Notes under the pieces: model-generated | Seen by the model: the letters and a program-made list of their open reading frames with translations, nothing else | What the model was told of the DNA's origin: nothing | Databases searched by the model: none | Position numbers and translations under genes: made by a program | Part shown: positions 3,307 through 45,184 of the stretch, piece after piece | Position numbering within the stretch: the stretch's first letter is position 1 | How the letters are laid out: each line of letters starts with the position of its first letter | IMG/VR virus record: IMGVR_UViG_3300018413_000001 | Length of the DNA: 64,000 nucleotides | From: an uncultured virus (IMG/VR IMGVR_UViG_3300018413_000001) | Taxonomy: Duplodnaviria > Heunggongvirae > Uroviricota > Caudoviricetes | Direction: 5' to 3' (one strand)

Positions 3307-3878
3307 AATCACCCCGCCACGAACACATGATGCCCCAAGGGGGGTGGAAATACACAGACACGATCACGGGTGTGGTGTGCAATGACAACCACCTCGGGGC
3401 TGTGCTGGACCGGGTGCGCCGGACGTGGATCGCCAATGGCATTGACCCCCCGCCGATGTGGGAGGAAATGGTCAAAGATCAGATGTGCCAGCAGAACCCC
3501 GGCCTCGACTGTCTCGAAGTGGGGGAGATCGAACGAGTGCTCTCACTCGATGACATCTGGCGCTTCGCCAACACGGCGCTGAAGTGGCTTCAGGACGGCG
3601 GCAAATGGGTGTCCAAGGAAGAGTCAGACCGCCGTGCTGCCGTCTGTGCCGGGTGCCCGTTGAACATCCATGTGGATGGCTGCTGGGGCTGCCGTGGGGC
3701 CATCAAGTGGCTGGCCGAGCGTGCCGGGATGCCGCCACCCACGACCAGTGATGACAAACTGCAAAGCTGCAAGGCATGTGGATGTTACAACAAGGTGGCC
3801 GTCCACATGCCTCTCGATGCCATGGACATCACTGGGGTGGAGTTTCCCGAGTGGTGTTGGAAGAAACCGGTGGTGTGA
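3303..3878 (+). CDS. Cys-rich putative zinc-binding phage protein
   Basis: ATGA overlap with upstream gene; motifs CAGC, CWGC, CKACGC and terminal CW. Confidence 0.65.
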   Translation: MKSPRHEHMMPQGGWKYTDTITGVVCNDNHLGAVLDRVRRTWIANGIDPPPMWEEMVKDQMCQQNPGLDCLEVGEIERVLSLDDIWRFANTALKWLQDGGKWVSKEESDRRAAVCAGCPLNIHVDGCWGCRGAIKWLAERAGMPPPTTSDDKLQSCKACGCYNKVAVHMPLDAMDITGVEFPEWCWKKPVV

Positions 3879-4470
3879 TGTCTTCCAAGAGAGTCTTGCC
3901 TTCGTGGAAAAGACGTTCTTGTTGAGAGTCGATGCGCCAGCCTTTCCATGACCCTTTGGGTCTTTTTGCTCTGGGGCTTATTGAACATATCCCAGAAACA
4001 GCATTGCAACATCTTTGGCCTAGTTTTGCCACAGCATCATTAGGATCAAACAAGTGGCCATTTTCTCTGACAAACAACATGAGATTTCTAAAAGTGTAGA
4101 TTTGGTTATCAGGAGATTTAATACGCCATACAAGTGCGCATTGGTGATTTTCTCTCTTTTTTAACAAGGTCTCAGACATCCGGCCTTTGTAATGTGGGCT
4201 ATGTATAGTTGTATCTATTTTGCCTTTATGCTTTTCTTTAATGGAATCCAGACGCATGCAATGCCCCCTAATGAAACGAGCGCCTTCACAGTCAACTTTT
4301 TTGCCGCAACCACACTCACATGGCATTGATGATTTCTTTTTGTGTAATAAATAGTATCGTTTTGCATAATCCTGTTTTTTGGAGTGGTTTTTAGCTCTGT
4401 ACCATTTCACATAAAGAGGGTTACTTTTACCATTTACATATCTTGGTGGCCTGTCGGATTCAGTTGTCAT
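3829..4470 (-). CDS. AT-rich homing-endonuclease-associated DNA-binding protein (NUMOD/IENR-like modules, no clear nuclease domain)
   Basis: CECGCG motif, WRIKSPDNQIYTFRNL and KGW motifs, Lys-rich; visibly more AT-rich than flanks. Confidence 0.5.
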   Translation of the reverse strand: MTTESDRPPRYVNGKSNPLYVKWYRAKNHSKKQDYAKRYYLLHKKKSSMPCECGCGKKVDCEGARFIRGHCMRLDSIKEKHKGKIDTTIHSPHYKGRMSETLLKKRENHQCALVWRIKSPDNQIYTFRNLMLFVRENGHLFDPNDAVAKLGQRCCNAVSGICSISPRAKRPKGSWKGWRIDSQQERLFHEGKTLLEDITPPVSSNTTRETPPQ

Positions 4471-4548: not shown

Positions 4549-5604
4549 TCAGCTCAAAGGGTCCACTTCTTCCTCGGTAGCCACAGCAGCCTTCTTCGAG
4601 ATCCACCCAGGCCCAGCCACCTCAAACCCGGCAGCGATGACATCAGCCTTCAACGGCTTCAGGTCTGTGCCCACATGGCCGATGTCCTTGGCCAGATCGG
4701 ACAGACGGTAAGCGCCACGGGCCAGCTTCATGTTGATCTGGGAGGCCAGAAAGCTCTCTTCGGGCTTGGCCGGTGCAGCGGGGGCTGGTTCTTCCACCTT
4801 GGGCACGACGACCTTGATCTTCTTGCTGCCAGCCGTCACCAACTTGCGCAGGGACTCGTCCTTGCAGCCATGCACCAGCACGGCGGTGGCAGGCACCAGA
4901 CCGCCACGGGAGCGCACCAGTTTGTCGGTGGCCACAGCCTTGCAGGTGATGCCGTCAGCAGTGAGTTCGTATTCGTGGGTGTTCCACATGTCGGCAATAA
5001 GGTCACTGTTGACCCGGCCCACGGCCTTGATGCCACCACGGATGTAGGTGTCAAAATTTTCCTTGGGGTTCGAGGCCAGCGGGTTGCCGAGATCCTGGAT
5101 GAGCGGACGGATGGCCTCGTCAATGTGCATGGTCGGAGGATAGACACCCACTGCCATCATGTAGTCCTCGCCGGGGCGCATCTCCAGCTTGCCGTTCACG
5201 TTGAAAGGCAGGGGCACCACATTGCCGTAGCACGGTTTACCCTTGGCGCGGTAGTCGTTCTCGATGAGGTCGAGCCAGCCAGGCACCAGCGGGGACGAGT
5301 CCACCTCAAGCCAGAGGAAAGGGTCCGAGTTCTGAGCCCTGCCCAGATTGAAAACAGCGCCAAAGAACAGCACACCGCCGTCCATGGGCATCCCGTATTC
5401 AGGTTCATAGAGAGCCTGTTTGACAACAACTTCCTGCATGCTGGGCCTGAGACGTTCAGCCTGTTCATGCACCTGCTCGATGACCGAGGGTGCCGAGAAA
5501 AAGAAGCAGTTGTGGTTGGAGAGACCGCCGAAGTGAATCAGAGTGTCAATCAGGTTCGGGAGCGCGTGGATGTCGTGGCGGGAGACGGGGATGACGAGTT
5601 TCAT
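4549..5604 (-). CDS. Putative GT-A-like glycosyltransferase with C-terminal extension
   Basis: N-terminal MKLVIPV beta-strand, FLWLEVDS (ExD) motif, VLVHGCKD motif; paralogous to 7357-7965. Confidence 0.5.
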   Translation of the reverse strand: MKLVIPVSRHDIHALPNLIDTLIHFGGLSNHNCFFFSAPSVIEQVHEQAERLRPSMQEVVVKQALYEPEYGMPMDGGVLFFGAVFNLGRAQNSDPFLWLEVDSSPLVPGWLDLIENDYRAKGKPCYGNVVPLPFNVNGKLEMRPGEDYMMAVGVYPPTMHIDEAIRPLIQDLGNPLASNPKENFDTYIRGGIKAVGRVNSDLIADMWNTHEYELTADGITCKAVATDKLVRSRGGLVPATAVLVHGCKDESLRKLVTAGSKKIKVVVPKVEEPAPAAPAKPEESFLASQINMKLARGAYRLSDLAKDIGHVGTDLKPLKADVIAAGFEVAGPGWISKKAAVATEEEVDPLS

Positions 5605-35575: not shown

Positions 35576-36009
35576 TCCATGAACGAGAGGCAGTCCGTTG
35601 TTTCACATTTGCCGTGGACATGGCCATTGTACTTTGCGTGTGTGAGATGAACCTTTCCTTTACAGATTGGGCATTCCTCAACACCACGCCAGTCCTGGCC
35701 CTTGTGTTCTTTCTTCACTCGGCCAATCAGTGGCAACGAAGCTTCAAAGTTACGGACAATAGATTGAACTTTTGCCTCATATTCGGCAATCTCTGCCTCA
35801 GTGGGTTCTTGGTACTTGTCGCATGACCCCCGTTTGGCAAATTCCTCCAATTGGGAAGGACTGTCAAAAACTGGGATGGTGCGGCAGGGGCGGCGCAATG
35901 CACACCCCGGTTTGTCGGGGTCAGGGGTCACTTCCTTGTAGCAAATACCAGCGTCACAAGTTTTGTTGTGGAATGATCCGTTGTAATGTTTACAGAGTCC
36001 TTTTTGCAT
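35572..36009 (-). CDS. Cys/His-rich hypothetical protein
   Basis: CKHYNG, CDAG, CPICKG...NGHVHGKCET..CLSFME. Confidence 0.65.
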   Translation of the reverse strand: MQKGLCKHYNGSFHNKTCDAGICYKEVTPDPDKPGCALRRPCRTIPVFDSPSQLEEFAKRGSCDKYQEPTEAEIAEYEAKVQSIVRNFEASLPLIGRVKKEHKGQDWRGVEECPICKGKVHLTHAKYNGHVHGKCETTDCLSFME

Positions 36010-36016
36010 AATGTTA

Positions 36017-36406
36017 TTAAAACACATCGGCCAGCGGGTCGGCGGCAGCCTCCACAGCCGCGCCTCCCGCCTTCTTCAAAAACAAAAACGTCACGAACCG
36101 TGGAACGCCACGCTCGTCGGACTGGTCCACCAGCGCCACGGAGGCGTGCTGCAACAGCAGATGCACGGCCTTGTCCATGCTGGCCAGCGGGATGCTGGCC
36201 TCGGCCAGCGAGTAATCCCACGGCTCCAGTGACAGCTCCAGGTATTCGCATAGGCCGGTGCCCGCCAGCCATTCATTCACCCTGTCTGCGTCGTCGCCGT
36301 AGCAGACGAACTTGCCGCCCCAGTTGAAGAGGCCGATGTCAGCGCGTGGCGAGGCTGACTTGATGCGGGAGTGCCGCTGCCTGATGATGTCAATGAGTGT
36401 GTCCAT
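36017..36406 (-). CDS. Stand-alone MutS domain I-like protein
   Basis: IKSASPRADIGLFNWGGKFVCYGDDA...SIP...LL...VALVDQ follows the MutS_I pattern K..P..I.LF..G.FY..F..DA...G.P...L...VA..EQ. Confidence 0.55.
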   Translation of the reverse strand: MDTLIDIIRQRHSRIKSASPRADIGLFNWGGKFVCYGDDADRVNEWLAGTGLCEYLELSLEPWDYSLAEASIPLASMDKAVHLLLQHASVALVDQSDERGVPRFVTFLFLKKAGGAAVEAAADPLADVF

Positions 36407-36411
36407 GGTGG

Positions 36412-36765
36412 TCAGAGAATTCCTTGGTGAATGGCTCTGTCTCCGTGTTCCATTTCAAAGCCGTGGGAGTAATACCCATTGTGGTAATTCCACAGAGTGA
36501 GGAAACGTTCACCATTGTCTCCAATCAGGCGAAAAGAAACCTGCCCACCACCATTGGAATCGCTGGAGGTTTCCATGAACTCAGTATCAAAGTTGAAACC
36601 GTCTGCGCCTTCATTCTTTTCGTGCTCTTGGTCCTTTTCTTTGGGCTTGGTCTGAGTGATCATCCAGCCGAAATTCTCACAACACGACTGGCCGTAGTCA
36701 AACCCGACCAGCACATTGTTGTCATCCACAAAGTTGATTTTGCCGTTTTTCTCAAAGATTTTCAT
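36412..36765 (-). CDS. Hypothetical phage protein (QSCCE / NGYY motifs)
   Basis: 117-aa ORF with QSCCENF and HNGYYSH. Confidence 0.65.
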   Translation of the reverse strand: MKIFEKNGKINFVDDNNVLVGFDYGQSCCENFGWMITQTKPKEKDQEHEKNEGADGFNFDTEFMETSSDSNGGGQVSFRLIGDNGERFLTLWNYHNGYYSHGFEMEHGDRAIHQGIL

Positions 36766-36773
36766 AATGTGTG

Positions 36774-36980
36774 CTAGTTGATTGTTTTTCCTGTTTTAAC
36801 TGCTGCTGATTTTTCCGCATACTGCCATCCAACGACCGACGCGATCCCGCACTCGCTCCAGAGCCACTGCTTGGCTTTTATCGGTGTTGTGGTCTCCATG
36901 CCGTTGGAGATCTTGACGAGAATCTTGGTGGACTCGTGGCAAGGCATCGGGTCACCCGGCTTGTGTGGGATGTAGGTCAT
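36774..36980 (-). CDS. Hypothetical protein
   Basis: 68-aa ORF with ATGA overlap. Confidence 0.55.
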   Translation of the reverse strand: MTYIPHKPGDPMPCHESTKILVKISNGMETTTPIKAKQWLWSECGIASVVGWQYAEKSAAVKTGKTIN

Positions 36981-37369
36981 GGCTGGTTTTTCAAGGTTTC
37001 AATCCGTTTATCGAGTGCTGCCATGTTTTGGCGGTGTTTGAACACCATCTCAGCACGCATTGCCTGCGTTGCTTTCAACTCAGTGCTGAAGAGGTTACGT
37101 TTACCTTGTGAAGATGTCCTTTCCCAGCCCTCACCGTGGCAGGTAGGTGATGAACACACTTTATATACACCTTCACCGATGCCACGAAAACTGTTGAAGT
37201 CCCACCCTTTGGTGAGACGCATTCCAGACTCTTCATATGATGGCGCTGGTAGGTCACGTTCTGGTGTTGGCTCATCTTTGAGTTCAGATTCAGCACGTCT
37301 TGCCCGTTTTTCGAGTTCTTCAATGTGGCGCTGCACCCACAAAGGCAGCTTTGATAATTTGTCTTTCAT
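36977..37369 (-). CDS. Hypothetical protein
   Basis: 130-aa ORF starting KLSKLPLWVQRHI. Confidence 0.6.
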   Translation of the reverse strand: MKDKLSKLPLWVQRHIEELEKRARRAESELKDEPTPERDLPAPSYEESGMRLTKGWDFNSFRGIGEGVYKVCSSPTCHGEGWERTSSQGKRNLFSTELKATQAMRAEMVFKHRQNMAALDKRIETLKNQP

Positions 37370-37370
37370 C

Positions 37371-37820
37371 TCACTTCTTCCCTTTCTTCGTTGGTTTCCT
37401 GTTCTTGTGCTCCTTCAACAGCAGCCACGCCATCTGACGTGAGCAGCCCATGGCCTCGGCGTTCTCGCGGGGCGTCCTGCTTGCGTCGAACCGGCTGCGG
37501 TCATACACACGCGGCCTGCCGGAGCCACCGGGCAGCGGCTTGGTGCAGGCTGGCACCTTGTGGGTTCTGCGCCATTCGCGCACCGTGTCCGGGTGGCATT
37601 CATAGATGAACGCAATGGTGGTGTCGTGCTGCGTGAAGTCGGCCTTGCTCAGGTCCACTGTGACGGGTCTGCCGGGCGTTCTGGTGGTGTGAGGAGCATG
37701 GACGGCCCTGTGCTCGGCCACGGTGTTCTCGTGGCATCCCAGCATGCGTGCTAGGGCGGCGTTGTTGTGTCTGGTCCATGGCTGGGACGGCCAGTGGACG
37801 GCTAGGGCGGGACGAGGCAT
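37371..37820 (-). CDS. Tandem HTH repeat DNA-binding protein
   Basis: Three HTH-like units: ALARMLGCHENTV, TIAFIYECHPDTV, ENAEAMGCSRQMA. Confidence 0.65.
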   Translation of the reverse strand: MPRPALAVHWPSQPWTRHNNAALARMLGCHENTVAEHRAVHAPHTTRTPGRPVTVDLSKADFTQHDTTIAFIYECHPDTVREWRRTHKVPACTKPLPGGSGRPRVYDRSRFDASRTPRENAEAMGCSRQMAWLLLKEHKNRKPTKKGKK

Positions 37821-37891
37821 GATGGTGAACTGGGGGATGGTGTAGGTGATGGCCGGGGGTTGGTCAAGCAGATTCGTTACTTATTGTGTTT

Positions 37892-38197
37892 TCATAATGT
37901 CTTCCTGTGTTTCTTGATGTGTTCTCTGACTGCTGTTCTGCTGCACCCCACGAGGGCTGCAATCTCGCTCACCGGCATCCCCCAGTCCGTCACCCGGTCC
38001 CACGGTCTGCGGGGCATGGGCGCGTGGGCCTTGTAACGGTTGCTGCCGGACCCCGGCTTGCGCGGAGCCTTGGGCAGGTTGTTCCTTGTGCGCAGGCTCA
38101 CGGCTGTCACGTATGAGCAGCCGAGGATGGCTGTGGCTTGCTGGTGGGTCGTGTTAGCCCAGTCCGTGATCTTGGTGAGGTCGTAGCAGGTGGGCAT
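37892..38197 (-). CDS. Tandem HTH repeat DNA-binding protein
   Basis: Two TDW-HTH units: ATAILGCSYVTA and EIAALVGCSRTAV. Confidence 0.65.
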   Translation of the reverse strand: MPTCYDLTKITDWANTTHQQATAILGCSYVTAVSLRTRNNLPKAPRKPGSGSNRYKAHAPMPRRPWDRVTDWGMPVSEIAALVGCSRTAVREHIKKHRKTL

Positions 38198-38201
38198 GGT
38201 G

Positions 38202-39433
38202 TCAGTTCATCCGGGGTGGTCTGCCTTTGGTCCTCGCACGGGTGGTGGCGAGGGCGAGACGGGCAAGGTTGTTGAGCGGGTTCCATTGCTTGGGCTGAGG
38301 TTTGACATTGCTCATCCAAAGCATTCCGTTCTCAACCCATTGCTGGCGGCGTCGCTCCGGCTTGTGGCCTTCATCAAACACAAACCAGCAGGCTCTGCAC
38401 TGCCCATTTGGATAATGCTTGCTGGGATGTCCACAGCACGGGCACATCTTTGTTCGTGGTGTGCTCATTGCTGCGCCTCCGTCCGTTTGAAGCTTTTGCT
38501 TACCATATCGTCATGGGCTTCCCTTTTGGCTCTTAAATCACCAAAATCACACCATACTAAGAAAGCAACCAAAAGCATAATACAGAACACAATTGCGAGG
38601 CATTGGCCGTCTGACATCGGGTTTGATTGTGCGCTCATTGCTGTGCCTCCGTGAAGTTGGCCGCCTCTTTGATCCGTCTCCACCGGGGGCGGAACACGGT
38701 CTCGATGTTGTCGGTCACACGGTCAGCCGGGTGCGCCCTGCGTGCGGGAGGCGTGCTGTGATCGCTGAAGTAGAGAACCTTCTTCACCGCCTCGTCGAGG
38801 TGGCGGAGTCCTGGGGACGTGACAGCAACTTGTGGAGGCCCCAAGGGGTTGCCGTGCAAGTCGAGCGGCACTTTGGCCGTGTGGGTTTTCCCGGCGTATG
38901 GTGATGTGGTCGTGGTGTTCATGGGTTGTGGATGATGCTGACAGGGTGTGCATATTCGTGATACGGTTCAAGGCAGACGGCCTGCATGCCGCGATAGCTG
39001 TTTGGAAATGCGGCGATGAGGCTTTCACGAAAGACATCGTGGATCAGCATGTCATGGCCCCAGTGAAGCCAAGTAAAATGACAGGTGTCGTACCATTTGC
39101 CGGACTCTTTGAAAAAGTCCACCCGGCATTGGTGTGGGTCATTTGAGTAGTTGCTCATGGCTTTTGTATTGGTGAGCCCTGCTTGGGCTGCTGTGGTTGT
39201 GAGGGTGCCTGCTGCCGGGCCTGCGCGTGCTCAAGGGAGTCCACGTAGGACTCCAATGACATGGCGCGGGTGTCGGCAATCTGGCTGTTGATCTGTGCGG
39301 TGAGACGTGAGGAGATCATGGGAGTGGTTTAATGGCAATACCCCAGCAGCACGGCACCGAAGGCGCAGGCCATGAGGATGACAATGGCGGCCTGTACGAA
39401 GGCGGACGGGTCTTGTGGTTCGAGCGGGTCCAT
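38202..39433 (-). CDS. Run of six small hypothetical genes (38202-38468, 38465-38638, 38635-38922, 38919-39158, 39155-39319, 39329-39433)
   Basis: Contiguous minus-strand ORFs, mostly with ATGA overlaps; two have a single hydrophobic helix. Confidence 0.55.
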
Positions 39434-39446
39434 GGTGTTGTTACTG

Positions 39447-39475
39447 ATTTTGTGTTGAAGTTGTGGGTTTGTCAA
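39447..39475 (-). promoter_or_regulatory. Sigma70-like early promoter
   Basis: TTGACA-17 nt-CAAAAT upstream of the gene starting at 39433. Confidence 0.5.
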
Positions 39476-39510
39476 CAGGGACGGTTTAAAAAGTTTCCGG
39501 TCTGCCCTGC

Positions 39511-40116
39511 TTATGGTGTGGGTGCTTCCCATGGCTGAACACCGAGCTGGACGGCCAGACGGCGCAGCAGGCACATGCGCAGCCCGGTTTGCTCGTGCGT
39601 CGGGGTGCCGAGCTGGTCGAGCCATTGATGCAGGGTTTTCCGCTCCTCCGCATAGATTGTGGCCTGCGCCTGCTCTGCCTGGCGTTTGCCGGGCTTTCTA
39701 GGCGCTTTGATCCCTTTGGAGTATCGAGACCTTGCCGATGATACTGCGCCACGTGTGAGGCCACGGGCTTTCGCAATCTGGCTGTCATGCTGTGTCCAGT
39801 CTTGGCCAGCCCATGCAAAATTAGTGTGGCGCGGGCGTTGGAGGTGCCGGGCATACTCCCTGCGTTTTTCCCTCACTTGTGTGTTAGAGCACCCAAGAGC
39901 TTTCGCTATTTGGGTGTCGTTTTTTGTTTCCCATGGTTGACTGCGCCAGTCCACGGCAAGGCGTTTGTGGGGCGTCACCGGGGCAATTTTTGCTTGGCGT
40001 CTGCGACGGCAAATATTTGAAGCGTGGCACCCGATTTCTCGGGCAATCTGCGCATCCGATTTGCTCCAATCAATTTTGGAGTTTTTGGGTATCTTGTTCC
40101 GTTTGGTGTATTCCAT
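39511..40116 (-). CDS. Tandem HTH repeat DNA-binding protein
   Basis: Three W-x(3-4)-D-x-QIA units: DWSKSDAQIAREIGC, WETKNDTQIAKALGC, DWTQHDSQIAKARGL. Confidence 0.7.
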   Translation of the reverse strand: MEYTKRNKIPKNSKIDWSKSDAQIAREIGCHASNICRRRRQAKIAPVTPHKRLAVDWRSQPWETKNDTQIAKALGCSNTQVREKRREYARHLQRPRHTNFAWAGQDWTQHDSQIAKARGLTRGAVSSARSRYSKGIKAPRKPGKRQAEQAQATIYAEERKTLHQWLDQLGTPTHEQTGLRMCLLRRLAVQLGVQPWEAPTP

Positions 40117-40205
40117 ATTTGTGGCGCGTGGTTTTTAAAACGCTCCCCGGCTCGCGATGGCTGGTCATGCCATAGACGGCGGGGGCGGTGGCGGGCGGGC
40201 TGGTG

Positions 40206-40532
40206 CTAGGCCGGACGGCGTTTGATCCGGTAGGTGCCGCCTTCGTTCTCACGGTAGGTCTTGAGCTGTGCGAGTGCTTCCTTGCGGGTTTCCTCAACGC
40301 ACAAATCCTCCCATCCATGAACGCCGTAGTTGCCCTGCAATGCATGCTCATACTGCGCAATGTAGGCGGTCCCGGCAGGCATGCGCTTGACGGGTGCAAG
40401 GCCATCGTGAGCACGGCAGGAGTTGTAATCCCAGAGTGCCTTCGCACGATAAGATTCGCGGCCTCCCGTTCTGACTGTGGTTGTGTAGCTGCCGACTTCG
40501 GCGGTCGGTGGGACTTTGACGACGTATTTCAT
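40206..40532 (-). CDS. Hypothetical early protein
   Basis: 108 aa from MKYVVK; C-terminal LQGNYGVHGWEDL...YRENE...YRI; ACAGGAAA leader. Confidence 0.65.
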   Translation of the reverse strand: MKYVVKVPPTAEVGSYTTTVRTGGRESYRAKALWDYNSCRAHDGLAPVKRMPAGTAYIAQYEHALQGNYGVHGWEDLCVEETRKEALAQLKTYRENEGGTYRIKRRPA

Positions 40533-40574
40533 AATCTGCTTTCCTGTTTTTGTGTTGTTATCTTGCTCTGTTTC

Positions 40575-40645
40575 TAACGGTCTCGTCAGTGGGGGCACTA
40601 CCCTCAGACCGCCCCGCGTGTGCGGGGACGGTTTCGACCTGGTTA
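40575..40645 (-). ncRNA. Hammerhead ribozyme, type II
   Basis: Minus-strand RNA GGUC-GAAA-CCG(U)CCCCGC-ACAC-GCGGGG-CG-GUC^-UGAGGG-UAGUG-CCCCCA-CUGACGA-GACC contains the full catalytic core and three stems. Confidence 0.88.
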
Positions 40646-40795
40646 CTTGCGGGCTTCCATGGCCTGCCGGGCTCGCTTGTACGTTTTGTACACTCTCACG
40701 TTCCCAACGTGGTTTGTCAGAATCCACCGGGGCGGGTGCCCGAGGAAATGGCCGAGGCGACAAAGCCAAAGTTTGAGCCGTTTTTGGGGTTTCAT
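40643..40795 (-). CDS. 50-aa basic hypothetical protein (below ORF-track cutoff)
   Basis: MKPQKRLKLW...AMEARK*, TGATG coupling with upstream gene. Confidence 0.55.
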   Translation of the reverse strand: MKPQKRLKLWLCRLGHFLGHPPRWILTNHVGNVRVYKTYKRARQAMEARK

Positions 40796-41007
40796 CAGAC
40801 CGGGCCTCCAATGTGGATGGATTCGGACAATGGAGCGTGCGATTTATCAAGATAGCTTTGCGCTTCTTCCTTGGAGGGGAAAGAAACTGCAAAGAAGTCA
40901 GGGCCGGGAGGCATAGAGAAAAACTCCACCATGCCGGAGCGATTGCTGAACAGCGTTTTCACGCCGTATGGGGTGTCTAACAGGATATTGAATGGATTGC
41001 TGTTCAT
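40795..41007 (-). CDS. Hypothetical protein
   Basis: 70 aa from MNSNPF with A/C-rich leader. Confidence 0.5.
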   Translation of the reverse strand: MNSNPFNILLDTPYGVKTLFSNRSGMVEFFSMPPGPDFFAVSFPSKEEAQSYLDKSHAPLSESIHIGGPV

Positions 41008-41078
41008 AGGTTTGTGGCTGGCGTTGTGCCATCCGTGCCGCCCCGCTGGCGTGGAAACCTGCGGGGCGGTGTCGGGTG

Positions 41079-41537
41079 TCACTGGATCTCGCTCAACTGC
41101 TCCAGCTCCGCTTCCGTGAAGAAGGCCCGCAGGCGCTTGGCGAATGCCGAGCAGCGGCGGAACGTTTGCAGGGCTTTGATGCTGTCTTGGCTGTCCCCAT
41201 ACTCGGAGCACCATTCCGCGAACGTGGCGGGGGTGTACGCGTCTCTGCTGATGCAGGCGAGCACGGCGTAAGGGCGGACGGTTTGAATGCCGTCCTCGGC
41301 ATCCTTGATGCTGCCCCAGAAGTCGAACGTGAGACGTGGAGAATGCACCTTGCCATAGTTTGGCTCAGTCCATTTCGTTTGCTTGCCCTTGCTCAACGTC
41401 ACCCGGTAATGGTGGCCGTGTCTGCCGTTGTCACTCCATGCCGGGGCCTTGCTGTCGCTGAGCGTGGCGCGGAACTTGATCCCATTGGACGAGAGGAAGT
41501 GTTCGGCCTTGATGTCATATTCGTTTGTCGTTTTCAT
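41079..41537 (-). CDS. Hypothetical early phage protein
   Basis: 152 aa, HYRVTL...FDFWGS...PYAVLACI...TFAEWCSEYG. Confidence 0.7.
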   Translation of the reverse strand: MKTTNEYDIKAEHFLSSNGIKFRATLSDSKAPAWSDNGRHGHHYRVTLSKGKQTKWTEPNYGKVHSPRLTFDFWGSIKDAEDGIQTVRPYAVLACISRDAYTPATFAEWCSEYGDSQDSIKALQTFRRCSAFAKRLRAFFTEAELEQLSEIQ

Positions 41538-41622
41538 ATGTTTTGCTTTTTGACGTTTTGAGCGGGTGTCGCCCCCGTTGGTTTCTGTCTTTCCTAACGC
41601 CAGCGTTCACCGCTGGAAACTG

Positions 41623-42024
41623 TTAAATCGCGCCCGCTCCGCCCTGCTTATGCTGACGTTCATGCCAGTTGGGGGAGTGGCCGTTCCAAGCCCCGTTGAC
41701 GCGTTCAAAGGATGCGTTGAACGGCGTCAGCTTGTAAACCCCTTCGCGCCCTTCAATGGTGAAGCTGAAGCCACGGGATGCCTGGCGCTTGCGGTTGCGT
41801 GCCACCCTGCCGGCCTTGACCGGGCGCAGCATGCCGTCCATGCCCCCGCCATGCCATATATGCCGGAAGTTCTCGGAGGCAATGACGGCATTGGTGGAGC
41901 TGGACACCTCCCGGCTCTCATGGAGAGCCCGGCTGGTGAGGCCCGACTTCAGCGCAACGGCCTGGGTGAGGATGTCGGCATCCGAGGAGCCGGTGATGTT
42001 GAATGTGCGGTTGTGCGTGTTCAT
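41623..42024 (-). CDS. Hypothetical early protein
   Basis: 133 aa, AAAGGAAC leader, downstream of promoter. Confidence 0.6.
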   Translation of the reverse strand: MNTHNRTFNITGSSDADILTQAVALKSGLTSRALHESREVSSSTNAVIASENFRHIWHGGGMDGMLRPVKAGRVARNRKRQASRGFSFTIEGREGVYKLTPFNASFERVNGAWNGHSPNWHERQHKQGGAGAI

Positions 42025-42070
42025 AAAGATATGTTGTTCCTTTCTGGTCTGCCCTGCTTATGTGAAGGAC

Positions 42071-42108
42071 GTTACTAAATTAGTAACATCAAGCCGGGGG
42101 TTTGTCAA
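42071..42108 (-). promoter_or_regulatory. Early promoter with overlapping palindromic operator
   Basis: TTGACA (42108-42103) followed 17 nt later by TACTAA inside the perfect palindrome GTTACTAA-A-TTAGTAAC (42071-42087). Confidence 0.55.
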
Positions 42109-42185
42109 AAGTATTTGTTTAAAGGCTGAAGGGATGCACGGGGGCCGGAGCGCGGGTTATGTGCTAGGGGCCTTTGTGCGATGTG

Positions 42186-43193
42186 CTAGGCTTTCACAAA
42201 CTGATACAGGAAAAACTTCCCTGCATTGTCGGGATGATCTTTGCCCCCTTGGTCCCTGTCAACGGCTGCAAACTTGGCTCCGTTGTGTGATATCTCATGC
42301 TGACAATCCGCAATTGCTGCGGACAATGTTTCTCTTGGCTCGCCTAGCTTCTCCATGGCGTGGATCATTACACGAGCGCGGTATCTTGTTTTATGCTCCA
42401 TATTATCTCCTGTTTTATTGTTGTTTCTGCCCTGTCGTTTCGACACTCAAGGCGTTGTTGCCAGAATGCCGAATACAGGGCAGGAGGGAGGCCGGGGCGG
42501 GTGGTTATCCCGCATTGTGCGGCCCTGGGTGCTCCCCCTATCGCGATTCCTCAATCACGTAGTGAACCGATGGGGCCGCATCCTTCAGAGCTTTGAGCCA
42601 GCGTTGCGCCGTCCGTCTGCTCCGGGCTTCGTAGTCCCAAGTATTGCGGTTGCGCCCCATCCCTGACACAACGGCCGGGCGGAACGGGATTATTGTCTGC
42701 ATGATGCACCAGGCCTTTGGTGTGTTCTGTCTGTTCATGGTATCTCCTGTTTTTGGTTTCCTGTCGGCATTTGTTGTGAACGCCTCCCCTTTGTCCCCTG
42801 GGTGGCTTGCGAGGCCACATGAGGGGGCAATGGGGAAGTGCCTGTTTATTGAAGCCGGTGTTTGCGCTTCTTGTAAGCCAGATGCTTTTCAAGCTCGCTC
42901 ATGGTGAAAACCGTGTGCTGGTGACTTGATCCGCATCCGCAGCTAGTACGGCTTTTCAGCTTGTGGTGGCCCCAAGCCTGATCTTTGAACCATGTTTCAA
43001 AAGAGAGCGTGTGACGCCCGTTCGTGAAACAATGGGACAGATAGTATCGTGTGCCACCCAATGCACTGATCCGCGTGGAGTGCGAATAGTTGTAATTGAA
43101 CCGTGCCGCGACAGGGGAGCAGGGATGTTCAGCCCACGAAGGATGAAACCCCTGTCCACAACCATTGTCATTCTCAAGTATTGGCTTTTCCAT
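42186..43193 (-). CDS. Three small early genes (42186-42401, 42538-42738, 42846-43193)
   Basis: Each ATG is preceded by the AAAACAGGAGA leader. Confidence 0.65.
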
Positions 43194-43321
43194 ATTCTGT
43201 TTTGTCTCCTGTTTTTAGTTTGTGTTCCCTTTACCCGTCCCGCCGTTGTGGCGTTCAATCCTGCCCTGTCGGGGAGCACTGGCTAGGTGCTAGGCCCTCA
43301 GGGCAGTGGTTGAGCGTCAAT

Positions 43322-43867
43322 CTATGCGATGGCGCAAAGCTCCATGCTTTCCTGCTCCTCTGCTTCGCGCATTTCCTCGTCTTCTTTTTCCCTATATTCG
43401 CGTTCAGTCTTCGCCACGTCTTCAGCGAGAGAATCAGCCGCACGGGCTGCATCAATCTCTGATTCATAGGCTGAACTTTCCACGTAACTGGCCATGCTTT
43501 CTCCCATTGACCAGCCAGCAAGGAAACCCCTGCCATGGGGGAGGCACATAACCAGCCCTCTGATCTTATCGCCGTGCCCGTCTTCGTCTGTAAACCATCC
43601 TGTGTGATCCACGCGGCTGCCGTCAACTTCGTCGCACCATTGCCATCTCAGGCCCGGCATGAAGTCGGAATCAAGATAGAATGATGTTCCCTTGCAGTCG
43701 TTCGGTGCCGGACTGGTTGAGTACGGCCCCGTACATGGGTTTTTGTAATGCTCCAGCCTCTTGGCCTTGCTGCCCTTGGACAGAGTCCATGCCCATTTGG
43801 GGAACTGGAACCCTGCAAAGGTGAATTCTGGCGTTGGAAGGCTGAACCGTTTCGTGTGTTGCTGCAT
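43322..43867 (-). CDS. Hypothetical early protein
   Basis: 181 aa, HTGWFTD...IRGLV..LPHGRGFLAGW, acidic coiled tail; AAAACAGGAGA leader. Confidence 0.7.
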   Translation of the reverse strand: MQQHTKRFSLPTPEFTFAGFQFPKWAWTLSKGSKAKRLEHYKNPCTGPYSTSPAPNDCKGTSFYLDSDFMPGLRWQWCDEVDGSRVDHTGWFTDEDGHGDKIRGLVMCLPHGRGFLAGWSMGESMASYVESSAYESEIDAARAADSLAEDVAKTEREYREKEDEEMREAEEQESMELCAIA

Positions 43868-43913
43868 GATGTTTTGTCTCCTGTTTTAGTGTTCTCTGCT
43901 TTGTAGGCGTTTT

Positions 43914-44246
43914 TTAGCCTTCCTCTTCACACTGCCAAAAACCAAAGTCTGAACCGTCCCCTGGGTGACTGCCAAAATAGCAGCCTTCAGGAGCGGCCTC
44001 GCTGAGGATCTCTGTCAGTTCATCCAGCTTCCATTGAGCCTCTTCAGAATCATACCATTCTGAACTGTCCCCTTCGTCCTGCACATGAGCAGGGATGAAA
44101 GAGAACGGCTGGACCATGACTCCCTCATAGTGGTCAGGAGCGTACTCCTGAACTGCATCAAGGAATGCTTGTAGCAAGTCCTGGGTGCGCAGAGTGCCGT
44201 GGGATACTGAGACGTTGATCATATCTAATGAGCTTCCTGTTTTCAT
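43914..44246 (-). CDS. Acidic hypothetical early protein (first gene of leftward operon)
   Basis: 110 aa, SHGTLRTQDLL...APEGCYFGSHPGDGSDFGFW; AAAACAGGAGA leader. Confidence 0.7.
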   Translation of the reverse strand: MKTGSSLDMINVSVSHGTLRTQDLLQAFLDAVQEYAPDHYEGVMVQPFSFIPAHVQDEGDSSEWYDSEEAQWKLDELTEILSEAAPEGCYFGSHPGDGSDFGFWQCEEEG

Positions 44247-44378
44247 CTTGTTGGTTTCTCCTGTTTTATTGTTCTCTGCCTTGTGGCAACGAGCACAATA
44301 TGGAGCATGGCCGTGAATTAATCAAGGACTTATTTTACATTTTGATGGATTCTTTGCCCCTCCAATGATGATATGGCG

Positions 44379-44803
44379 GGTGGACAGGTGGACAGTTCAA
44401 CCCGGCACCTGTCCACATGGAGCCGATTTTTACCGTTTTCGGTCTCCGAGTCCCCCCATTTATTATATCATGTTCAACTCAGAGCACCCTACAATATGTC
44501 AAAACAAGCCAATTGATATTATATCACGGTCAAAAACGGTCAGCAGGTGCCGGGTGGACAGTAGTGAAAGATTTGCTGTCCACCCAACTGTCCACCCATC
44601 TTAATGTCATTAATGATATTATATCATATTCAATTCATTGATAATCAGTAATTTATGAAGAATGGATATTAGTTAAGATGTGTTAAGTGACAGGATGGAC
44701 AGTACTTTTGGGTTAATTGCAGTAACATGAGAGAAATATGAGAGAAGAAAAAAAGTACAAAGGGAGAGCGACTAGCGGAAAGTTGTGTCTGTCTGTCCAT
44801 CCC
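44379..44803. repeat. Array of GTGGACAG/ATGGACAG boxes in both orientations in an AT-rich gap; candidate replication origin
   Basis: Forward boxes near 44380, 44388, 44554, 44695; reverse boxes at 44409, 44576, 44588, 44793. Confidence 0.6.
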
Positions 44804-45018
44804 GCCACTTTTATACTGGTTATAAGATTCTGGTTTGTAGTGATAATATATCAGGTTTTACGGGGGAGGGCTGGATTCTCGTTTTACGGCCCCACACGCC
44901 AGCACATTGGAGAAATCACGGGCGGAGAGCTGGAACGTTTGGAAGGGCGAATCTTGAGCAGTGGTGGCCGGGTCAAAGGAAAGCCGGTTGAACCGGATCA
45001 ACGGGAGGCTGGTTGAAC

Positions 45019-45154
45019 CGTTTTACGGCATGCCCTGGATTCTCGTTTTACGGCATGCCCTGGATTCTCGTTTTACGGCAAGCCCTGGATTCTCGTTTTA
45101 CGGCAAGCCCTGGATTCTCGTTTTACGGCAAGCCCTGGATTCTCGTTTTACGGC
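45019..45154. repeat. 25-bp tandem repeat, about 5.4 copies
   Basis: Unit CGTTTTACGGCA[T/A]GCCCTGGATTCT starting at 45019, 45044, 45069, 45094, 45119, partial at 45144; detached partial copy at 44871-44890. Confidence 0.95.
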
Positions 45155-45184
45155 TATAGTTGACAAATGTGATAGACTATCAGC

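Follow-up and report, generated by a model that had tools for sequence, protein, structure and literature searches.

A predicted type II hammerhead ribozyme with a core-pairing tail between small early genes of an uncultured tailed phage

The Locus and Its Genes

The stretch of DNA analyzed here, hereafter the window, comprises 64,000 nucleotides of an uncultured virus (IMG/VR record IMGVR_UViG_3300018413_000001) and is a tailed-phage genome in which a helicase, a family A polymerase, an exonuclease and a primase are encoded at 22–35 kb, followed after 35 kb and up to 44.2 kb by a block of small minus-strand genes. Among 55 proteins scanned from this early block and elsewhere, 13 could be described, and most of the small genes have no PHROG. 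The host search returned no cultured phage above 33% polymerase identity and, in bacterial genome assemblies, no relatives for two window proteins.

The element under study lies on the minus strand between two of these small genes. On its upstream side, a 50-aa ORF (40643..40795, minus strand) is coupled through TGATG to a 70-aa ORF; it is an orphan of uncertain reality, for which a homologue search found its own sequence only, and the indels of a related strain fall just outside both the 50-aa and the 70-aa ORFs. Its TAA stop codon (40645–40643) stands 3 nt ahead of the ribozyme. On the downstream side, a 108-aa gene (40206..40532, minus strand) belongs to a conserved family without assigned function (115 homologues of 116 candidates, no PHROG, all Atlas matches under 0.9). 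This gene is preceded by an A-rich leader (40533..40573, minus strand) with an AGGA ribosome-binding site (RBS) at 40545–40542, a type common to other early genes, as similar leaders and RBSs occur at 40550, 42416, 42753, 43215, 43887, and 44267, and the A-rich leaders of early genes end in AAAACAGGA. The accessibility of the RBS in the predicted 3′ product is mixed (0.16–1.0 in the fold model). Long hairpins precede several early genes, and the ribozyme occupies one such slot. A promoter scan gave 8 sites vs. 4.5 expected, with no strict site between 41500 and 40640.

Anatomy and Detection of the Ribozyme

The ribozyme extends over 40579..40640 (minus strand), from A40640 to the 3′ strand of stem II, as delimited by direct reading, Rfam alignment, a descriptor of our own and comparison with relatives. 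Its 5′ part (40636..40640) consists of an unpaired A40640, the candidate partner of U1.7, and of the 5′ strand of stem II, GGUC (40639–40636), which faces the 3′ strand GACC (40582–40579) and includes the G10.1–C11.1 pair. G12, A13, A14, and A15.1 follow at 40635–40632, and stem III (40632–40608) is made of 4 bp, a bulged U40628, 6 bp and a 4-nt loop, i.e., 10 bp with one bulge; the GAAA and this hairpin together (40608..40635) would form the 3′-terminal hairpin of the upstream product. The GUC triplet occupies 40609–40607, so that the hammerhead consensus predicts the scissile bond C17/U1.1 between C40607 and U40606, 36 nt after the stop codon of the 50-aa ORF and 74 nt before the ATG at 40532; the preliminary description had placed the cut at the same bond, about 75 nt from this ATG. 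Flush at the 5′ end of the predicted downstream product stands the stem I hairpin (40590..40606), whose strands 40606–40601 and 40595–40590 are closed by the loop UAGUG, with U1.7 at 40600; five of its six positions pair, and direct reading confirms the single mismatch already noticed, A40604·C40592. The catalytic core CUGACGA (40583..40589), seen both by direct reading and in the Rfam alignment, completes the element.

The core CUGANGA, the GAAA and the NUH triplet by which a hammerhead is recognized are all found within 40579–40640, and three stems surround the core, including G10.1–C11.1 and A15.1–U16.1, with stem I at 5/6 pairs. Since loops close stems I and III while stem II is open, the permutation is type II. 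Every part named in the preliminary description lies where it was said to lie, and its identification of a type II hammerhead holds. The same cannot be said of the proposed extension of stem II by UAAC/GUUA, which can be drawn here, yet is absent in 4/4 non-identical relatives; indeed, distal stem II extension is not enriched in the wider family described below (41/430 vs. a permuted mean of 37.8 among the matches listed). Three points are additional to that description, namely a likely tertiary contact between U1.7 and the A preceding stem II, the restriction of the A·C mismatch to the window copy within its lineage, and a tail helix that competes with stem II.

The check with Infernal and Rfam that had been suggested gave a divided answer: the whole RF02276 (Hammerhead_II) model could be aligned, but at 24.2 bits vs. 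a gathering score of 37 (E = 0.05 in a 2-kb search and 1.6 over the whole 64-kb window), and a search at the gathering score returned no match for 40579–40640. Membership of RF02276 by score was consequently rejected, the close relatives scoring 16–32 bits. Our own descriptor, which covers types I–III, has a single match in the window, the 40579–40640 element, and none in 100/100 Markov-simulated 64-kb sequences, from which it follows that the motif is not due to chance. Neither Rfam up to E 10 nor this descriptor found further ribozymes in the window, the 8 other weak Rfam matches all belonging to unrelated families below cut-off. On sequence grounds, the element is confirmed as a genuine, well-formed type II hammerhead. 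It lies under the Rfam cut-off and outside the pseudoknot subtype: a pseudoknot between loop I and the 3′ tail (at least 4 bp, usually with a 2-bp stem II) was considered and rejected, as loop I varies freely in the five lineage members and such pairing shows no family enrichment (92/430 vs. 90 permuted, among the matches listed). The clustered layout, in which two or more hammerheads flank single genes, is absent as well, with one hammerhead in the window and one in each of 5/5 records searched, so that no gene would be excised by flanking cuts.

A Junction between Swappable Cassettes

Pattern scans provided a lineage set of four non-identical relatives (L005, L007, L528, and L531) and two identical assemblies (L529 and L530); the nearest record, G001, lacks this region. 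The relatives become similar to the window in DNA from 40641–40647, where the ribozyme has its 5′ edge; for L007, L528, and L531 the similarity stops just before the ATG. The four relatives retain the ribozyme and its leader next to three kinds of upstream gene and two kinds of downstream gene. A tie between the ribozyme and the 108-aa gene is ruled out, as only 1/9 viral loci with this gene have the ribozyme, which the gene thus does not need. Ribozyme and leader are kept while their neighbors change, and they therefore form a junction between swappable cassettes rather than a part of either gene.

The five lineage versions differ in stem I pairing, in core position 7 and in the tail. Stem I position 3 is paired in 4/4 relatives, hence the A·C mismatch is private to the window copy among the five lineage types; it is nevertheless seen in three other assemblies, i.e., L529, L530, and run X1. 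The latter, a metatranscriptome library, covers 36000–44515 in two contigs and crosses the cut site without differences, although an assembled contig cannot separate RNA from DNA or cut from uncut molecules; its end at 44515 and the uncovered stretch beyond carry no evidential weight. Four of the seven runs listed were compared with the window, all of them as contigs; besides X1, these are X2 and X3, in which a related strain was probably sequenced as DNA, and X6, with four short pieces only.

The fact that likeness starts at the ribozyme's 5′ edge would also be expected if the element acted as DNA, as a recombination junction or a protein-binding palindrome for early cassettes, self-cleavage being incidental. 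Any conserved intergenic element yields shared junctions, however, and in the family at large, among the matches listed, the core bases are constant whereas the stems vary freely, by compensatory substitutions or G·U pairs, a pattern that points to selection at the RNA level even though the rows compared were partly chosen by a pairing descriptor. We regard a DNA-level role as extremely improbable.

A Family of the Same Layout in Phages

The family was delineated with looser patterns in four viral scans and one genome scan, and its figures refer to the matches listed. Application of a pairing descriptor to 527 loci and the window yielded at least 442 distinct cores, of which, among the matches listed, 7 with a stem II shorter than 3 bp were excluded to leave 435 cores in 179 clusters. 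The layout common in phages consists of an A, a 4-bp stem II, a 6-bp stem I and U1.7, and was found in many phyla among the matches listed. With a pattern free of pairing constraint, stem II is 4/4 paired in 127/136 distinct matches (one pair being fixed by the pattern) and stem I is 6/6 paired in 131/136, again among the matches listed; with the descriptor, which favored pairing, 438/442 of the listed cores have 6/6 stem I. Where the pattern did not impose them, the A before stem II and U1.7 were each present in 132/133 cores among the matches listed, and both are likely placed for the known A–U contact between stems II and I, as judged from this conservation.

The position of these hammerheads relative to genes is equally regular. 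An RBS and an ORF lie within 80 nt downstream in 236/322 cases vs. 29/284 and 5/322 in controls (median distance 21 nt), and a stop codon lies within 10 nt upstream in 154/280 vs. 10/280 in the control, both among the matches listed. A G at core position 7 turns the core into GAGGAG, followed within 8 nt by an ORF opened by ATG in 20/27 cases vs. 7/295 for the other cores (among the matches listed). In these G7 hammerheads, which include L008–L011, L274, L305, L320, and L344, the catalytic core doubles as ribosome-binding site, which implies that the 3′ product is a translated leader.

Only 2/20 matches listed in 20 family loci reach the Rfam cut-off, and 9 loci gave no match. Two or more cores occur in 39/385 family loci among the matches listed. 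One phage contig of 67.6 kb (L159–L161 and L278) has nine layout matches within ~5 kb among those listed. The bacterial assembly loci L568–L644 contain one cluster of 51 related cores, many of them from Gastranaerophilales and often paired ~360 nt apart (among the matches listed).

A Tail That Pairs with the Core

Immediately 3′ of the ribozyme, the tail GUUAG together with C40579 can pair with CUGACG of the core (40574..40589, minus strand) to form a core-sequestering hairpin of 6 bp, one of them G·U, which excludes stem II. The minimum free energy fold of the window RNA is not catalytic, the core being paired with the tail instead of stem II being formed (z −1.76). In the fold ensemble, the probability of stem II in the window is 0.72 before the tail is made, and with the tail it falls to 0.01 while the core-tail hairpin reaches 0.98; a drop from 0.72–0.84 to 0.00–0.25 is computed for 5/5 lineage members. 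On this model, the value of 0.01 counts against processing of the transcript by the window copy. Ensemble probabilities ignore tertiary energy, however, and the gap of ~2 kcal/mol between the core-tail and the catalytic folds lies within what tertiary folding could repay.

Full 5-bp complements of the core, located right after stem II or overlapping it, occur in 94/435 viral cores, and pure Watson–Crick complements in 75/435 vs. 5.4 in tail shuffles, both among the matches listed. Moreover, core position 7 covaries with the tail over the 179 clusters (C–G 27, C–A 2, U–A 27, U–G 8; Fisher 8e-9, among the matches listed), and the change from C–G to U–A occurs within the lineage too. With coarser clustering, the P-value of this covariation becomes 2e-5, 0.003, and 0.12 at 107, 30, and 19 clusters, respectively (among the matches listed). 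The helix is found in 0/41 G7 cores, those whose core is an RBS (among the matches listed).

These observations are what a gated ribozyme would produce, one that cuts only between the synthesis of stem II and that of the tail, or once the ribosome of the upstream gene leaves, with the corollary that elongation speed or upstream translation would tune the fraction cut. The fall in stem II probability in all five lineage members, the covariation repeated inside the lineage, the excess of perfect complements over shuffles and the absence of the helix where the core serves translation all agree with such a gate, but the same data fit a lock that acts after cleavage. Furthermore, about four fifths of the viral members listed have no helix, bacterial genome assemblies show it in only 3/110 new cores (among the matches listed, with a pattern limited to GGUC/GACC stems), the significance of the covariation is lost at the coarsest clustering, and L005 and L007 have a mismatch within the helix. 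A similar tail is also found on another early leader, near 41590 and twice in L012, and, judging by this resemblance, the GUUAG of the window may have come by recombination. Gating is in our opinion unlikely for the window copy. In broader terms, the tail helix may limit or lock cleavage, and we propose, tentatively and with considerable doubt, that in a substantial share of the type II hammerheads of phages, the window copy among them, the tail is a selected control element which, through a co-transcriptional window or through coupling to translation termination upstream, tunes gene by gene how far early transcripts are divided into insulated messages with hairpin caps. No description of a core-pairing tail was found in the literature on phage hammerheads, of which the subscription papers were mostly beyond reach.

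Stem I is the other unusual feature of the window copy, being among the weakest of the family (19/435 as weak or weaker among the matches listed); its remaining five pairs are predicted to be formed with probabilities of 0.5–0.85 in the fold ensemble. Together, the A·C mismatch and the full tail helix could signify that the element is in decay, carried along with the leader cassette and in practice an inactive hairpin spacer. The mismatch is unique among the five lineage types, is real in L529, L530, and X1, and departs from the 6/6 stem I of 438/442 cores (among the matches listed, with a descriptor that favored pairing); plain hairpins fill other early slots, and 4/18 consensus hammerheads tested in 2011 were inactive (PMC3088659). 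Against decay, the core bases, G10.1–C11.1, the A and U1.7 are all intact and five of the six stem I pairs remain, and we consider it quite unlikely that the ribozyme is a dead remnant.

Proposed Mechanism and Comparison with Known Systems

We hold, with slightly more than even confidence, that the element is a genuine type II hammerhead which processes the early polycistronic mRNA of the minus strand in a single space between cistrons. The preliminary description had put forward such processing; the ribozyme anatomy, the placement of the family and the precedent of 2011 are in its favor, and the process itself remains a prediction from sequence. The sequence offers the complete core with its three stems, as well as an A and a U1.7 positioned for the A–U contact. 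By the chemistry of the class, cleavage at 40607/40606 would leave on the upstream RNA a 2′,3′-cyclic phosphate two bases past the stem III hairpin, and on the downstream RNA a 5′-OH end placed directly on the stem I hairpin. Both new ends would thus be capped by hairpins and protected, and the downstream gene would gain the same 5′ leader whatever the upstream gene, an insulation comparable to that of RiboJ. According to the fold computations, departure of the stem II partner would let the core refold on the tail, with the A-rich leader and RBS lying downstream of the resulting hairpin, and reversal of the cut would thereby be difficult. Owing to the mismatch in stem I and to the tail helix, cutting would probably be slow or partial compared with the relatives, the slowness being expected from the weakness of stem I.

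A single element of this kind is ordinary, for intergenic phage hammerheads have been on record since 2011 and abound in viral metagenomes. Perreault 2011 reported type II hammerheads between variable prophage genes and proposed that they process phage transcripts; cleavage of tandem hammerheads from prophages was reported there both in vitro and in E. coli, and the 5′ end of a halovirus early transcript lies within 3 nt of the hammerhead site (PMC3088659). The window element resembles those hammerheads, and RF02276, in permutation, core, GUC site and intergenic position among variable phage genes, and its layout of A, 4-nt stem II, 6-bp stem I and U1.7 recurs in the active phage hammerhead of Bcep176, as read by eye from the primer table of that paper (PMC3088659). 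The window element differs from the Rfam consensus, whose stem II is 2 bp long and whose loop I forms a pseudoknot with the tail, by its 4-bp stem II and the lack of a pseudoknot signal, and from the prophage hammerheads, which are tandem, in being single; the portions of Perreault 2011 available describe no core-tail helix (PMC3088659). The HHphage of haloviruses HF1 and HF2 likewise immediately precedes an early gene's start codon, but it is a salt-dependent core variant of archaeal viruses, 13 nt before a helicase gene (PMC3088659), whereas the window element has a canonical core and lies 46 nt before a small gene without assigned function.

The tertiary contact has parallels of its own. 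A trans-Hoogsteen contact between U1.7 and an A occurs in minimal and natural hammerheads (O'Rourke et al., via PMC11875169 and PMC9217987), and the minimal hammerheads of these authors share with the window an unpaired U seven bases past the cut and a 4-bp stem II. Their A is the last position of loop II, whereas stem II of the window element is open and its A dangles at the 5′ end instead of belonging to a GNRA-type loop; the contact is deduced here from conservation only. The two papers disagree on whether this contact suffices, and limits to its effect have been reported (PMC11875169, PMC9217987). The available part of PMC10085705 contains nothing on this hammerhead layout.

RiboJ, which combines the sTRSV hammerhead with a hairpin, provides transcripts with a uniform 5′ end capped by a hairpin ahead of the RBS, whatever the upstream sequence, and raises transcript ~2-fold and protein 2–10-fold (PMC6206723). 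The window element can be likened to it, but RiboJ is synthetic, has another permutation and stands after a promoter (PMC6206723), whereas the window element is natural, stands after a stop codon and has an upstream product that is also mRNA. Taken as a whole, the layout would supply a large collection of natural insulators like RiboJ, most of them under the Rfam cut-off.

The 5′-OH product could instead serve as a decay signal in the manner of glmS, with a host 5′ exonuclease removing it and thereby timing the shut-off of early genes. The layout is found in many phyla (among the matches listed), and some of these phyla possess RNase J. Cleavage followed by degradation is known for glmS, according to a 2019 review (PMC6765202). 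The predicted 3′ product begins with a flush hairpin, however, and in G7 variants the product itself bears the RBS, which argues for translation. A decay signal is very unlikely in our judgment. The same review regards the role of bacterial and phage self-cleaving ribozymes as largely elusive (PMC6765202). The locus constitutes a natural experiment on the role of hammerheads, with five lineage versions and exchanged neighbors upstream and downstream. Gating of cleavage by the tail helix, if real, would represent a natural form of hammerhead control without earlier report, and tail control, if true, would together with the core-as-RBS variants give a direct design rule for what phage hammerheads do.

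Other Features of the Early Region

Several structured or repeated elements accompany the ribozyme in the early region. A long three-tier hairpin at 43262–43310 (minus strand) precedes the leader of a 115-aa gene and is also present in L541 near 3820–3870; the G003 copy shows compensatory changes in the outer stem, and the hairpin may represent an RNase III-type site or a different structured RNA occupying a slot like that of the hammerhead. Hairpins of the CTGCCCTG type (43310 and 42483) were found at 23 viral loci, of which only the known relative L556 is a clear homologue, the rest resembling chance matches. A very stable intergenic fold at 42427–42545 (minus strand; z −4.64), with a homologue in L556/L541, has an outer stem, CUGCCCUG/CAGGGCAG, which is the same as at 43310. 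Another three-tier hairpin, whose top loop has 7 nt, lies at 42775–42840 (minus strand) before a 66-aa gene and is duplicated before different genes in G003 (L541, near 4370–4430 and 4880–4940). Further intergenic hairpins are located at 40145–40200 and 41590–41615 (minus strand), and L012 has two copies of the 41615 hairpin and its CGTTAG tail, each preceding a different gene.

Downstream of the ribozyme, three small genes (37371–37820, 37892–38197, and 39511–40116) are made of repeated short helix-turn-helix-like units with weak PHROG matches. The motif ATAAGCAGGGC is repeated in the early region (39486–39518, 41623–41655, and 42033–42065), as are TTGAC-containing promoter-like repeats (37852–37878, 39458–39490, and 42091–42123); the two are possible early promoters with a regulator site. 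Finally, an AT-richer gap at 44300–45180 between divergent gene blocks contains TATTATATCAT repeats and, at 44994–45179, six 25-nt tandem repeats, and is a candidate origin or packaging region.
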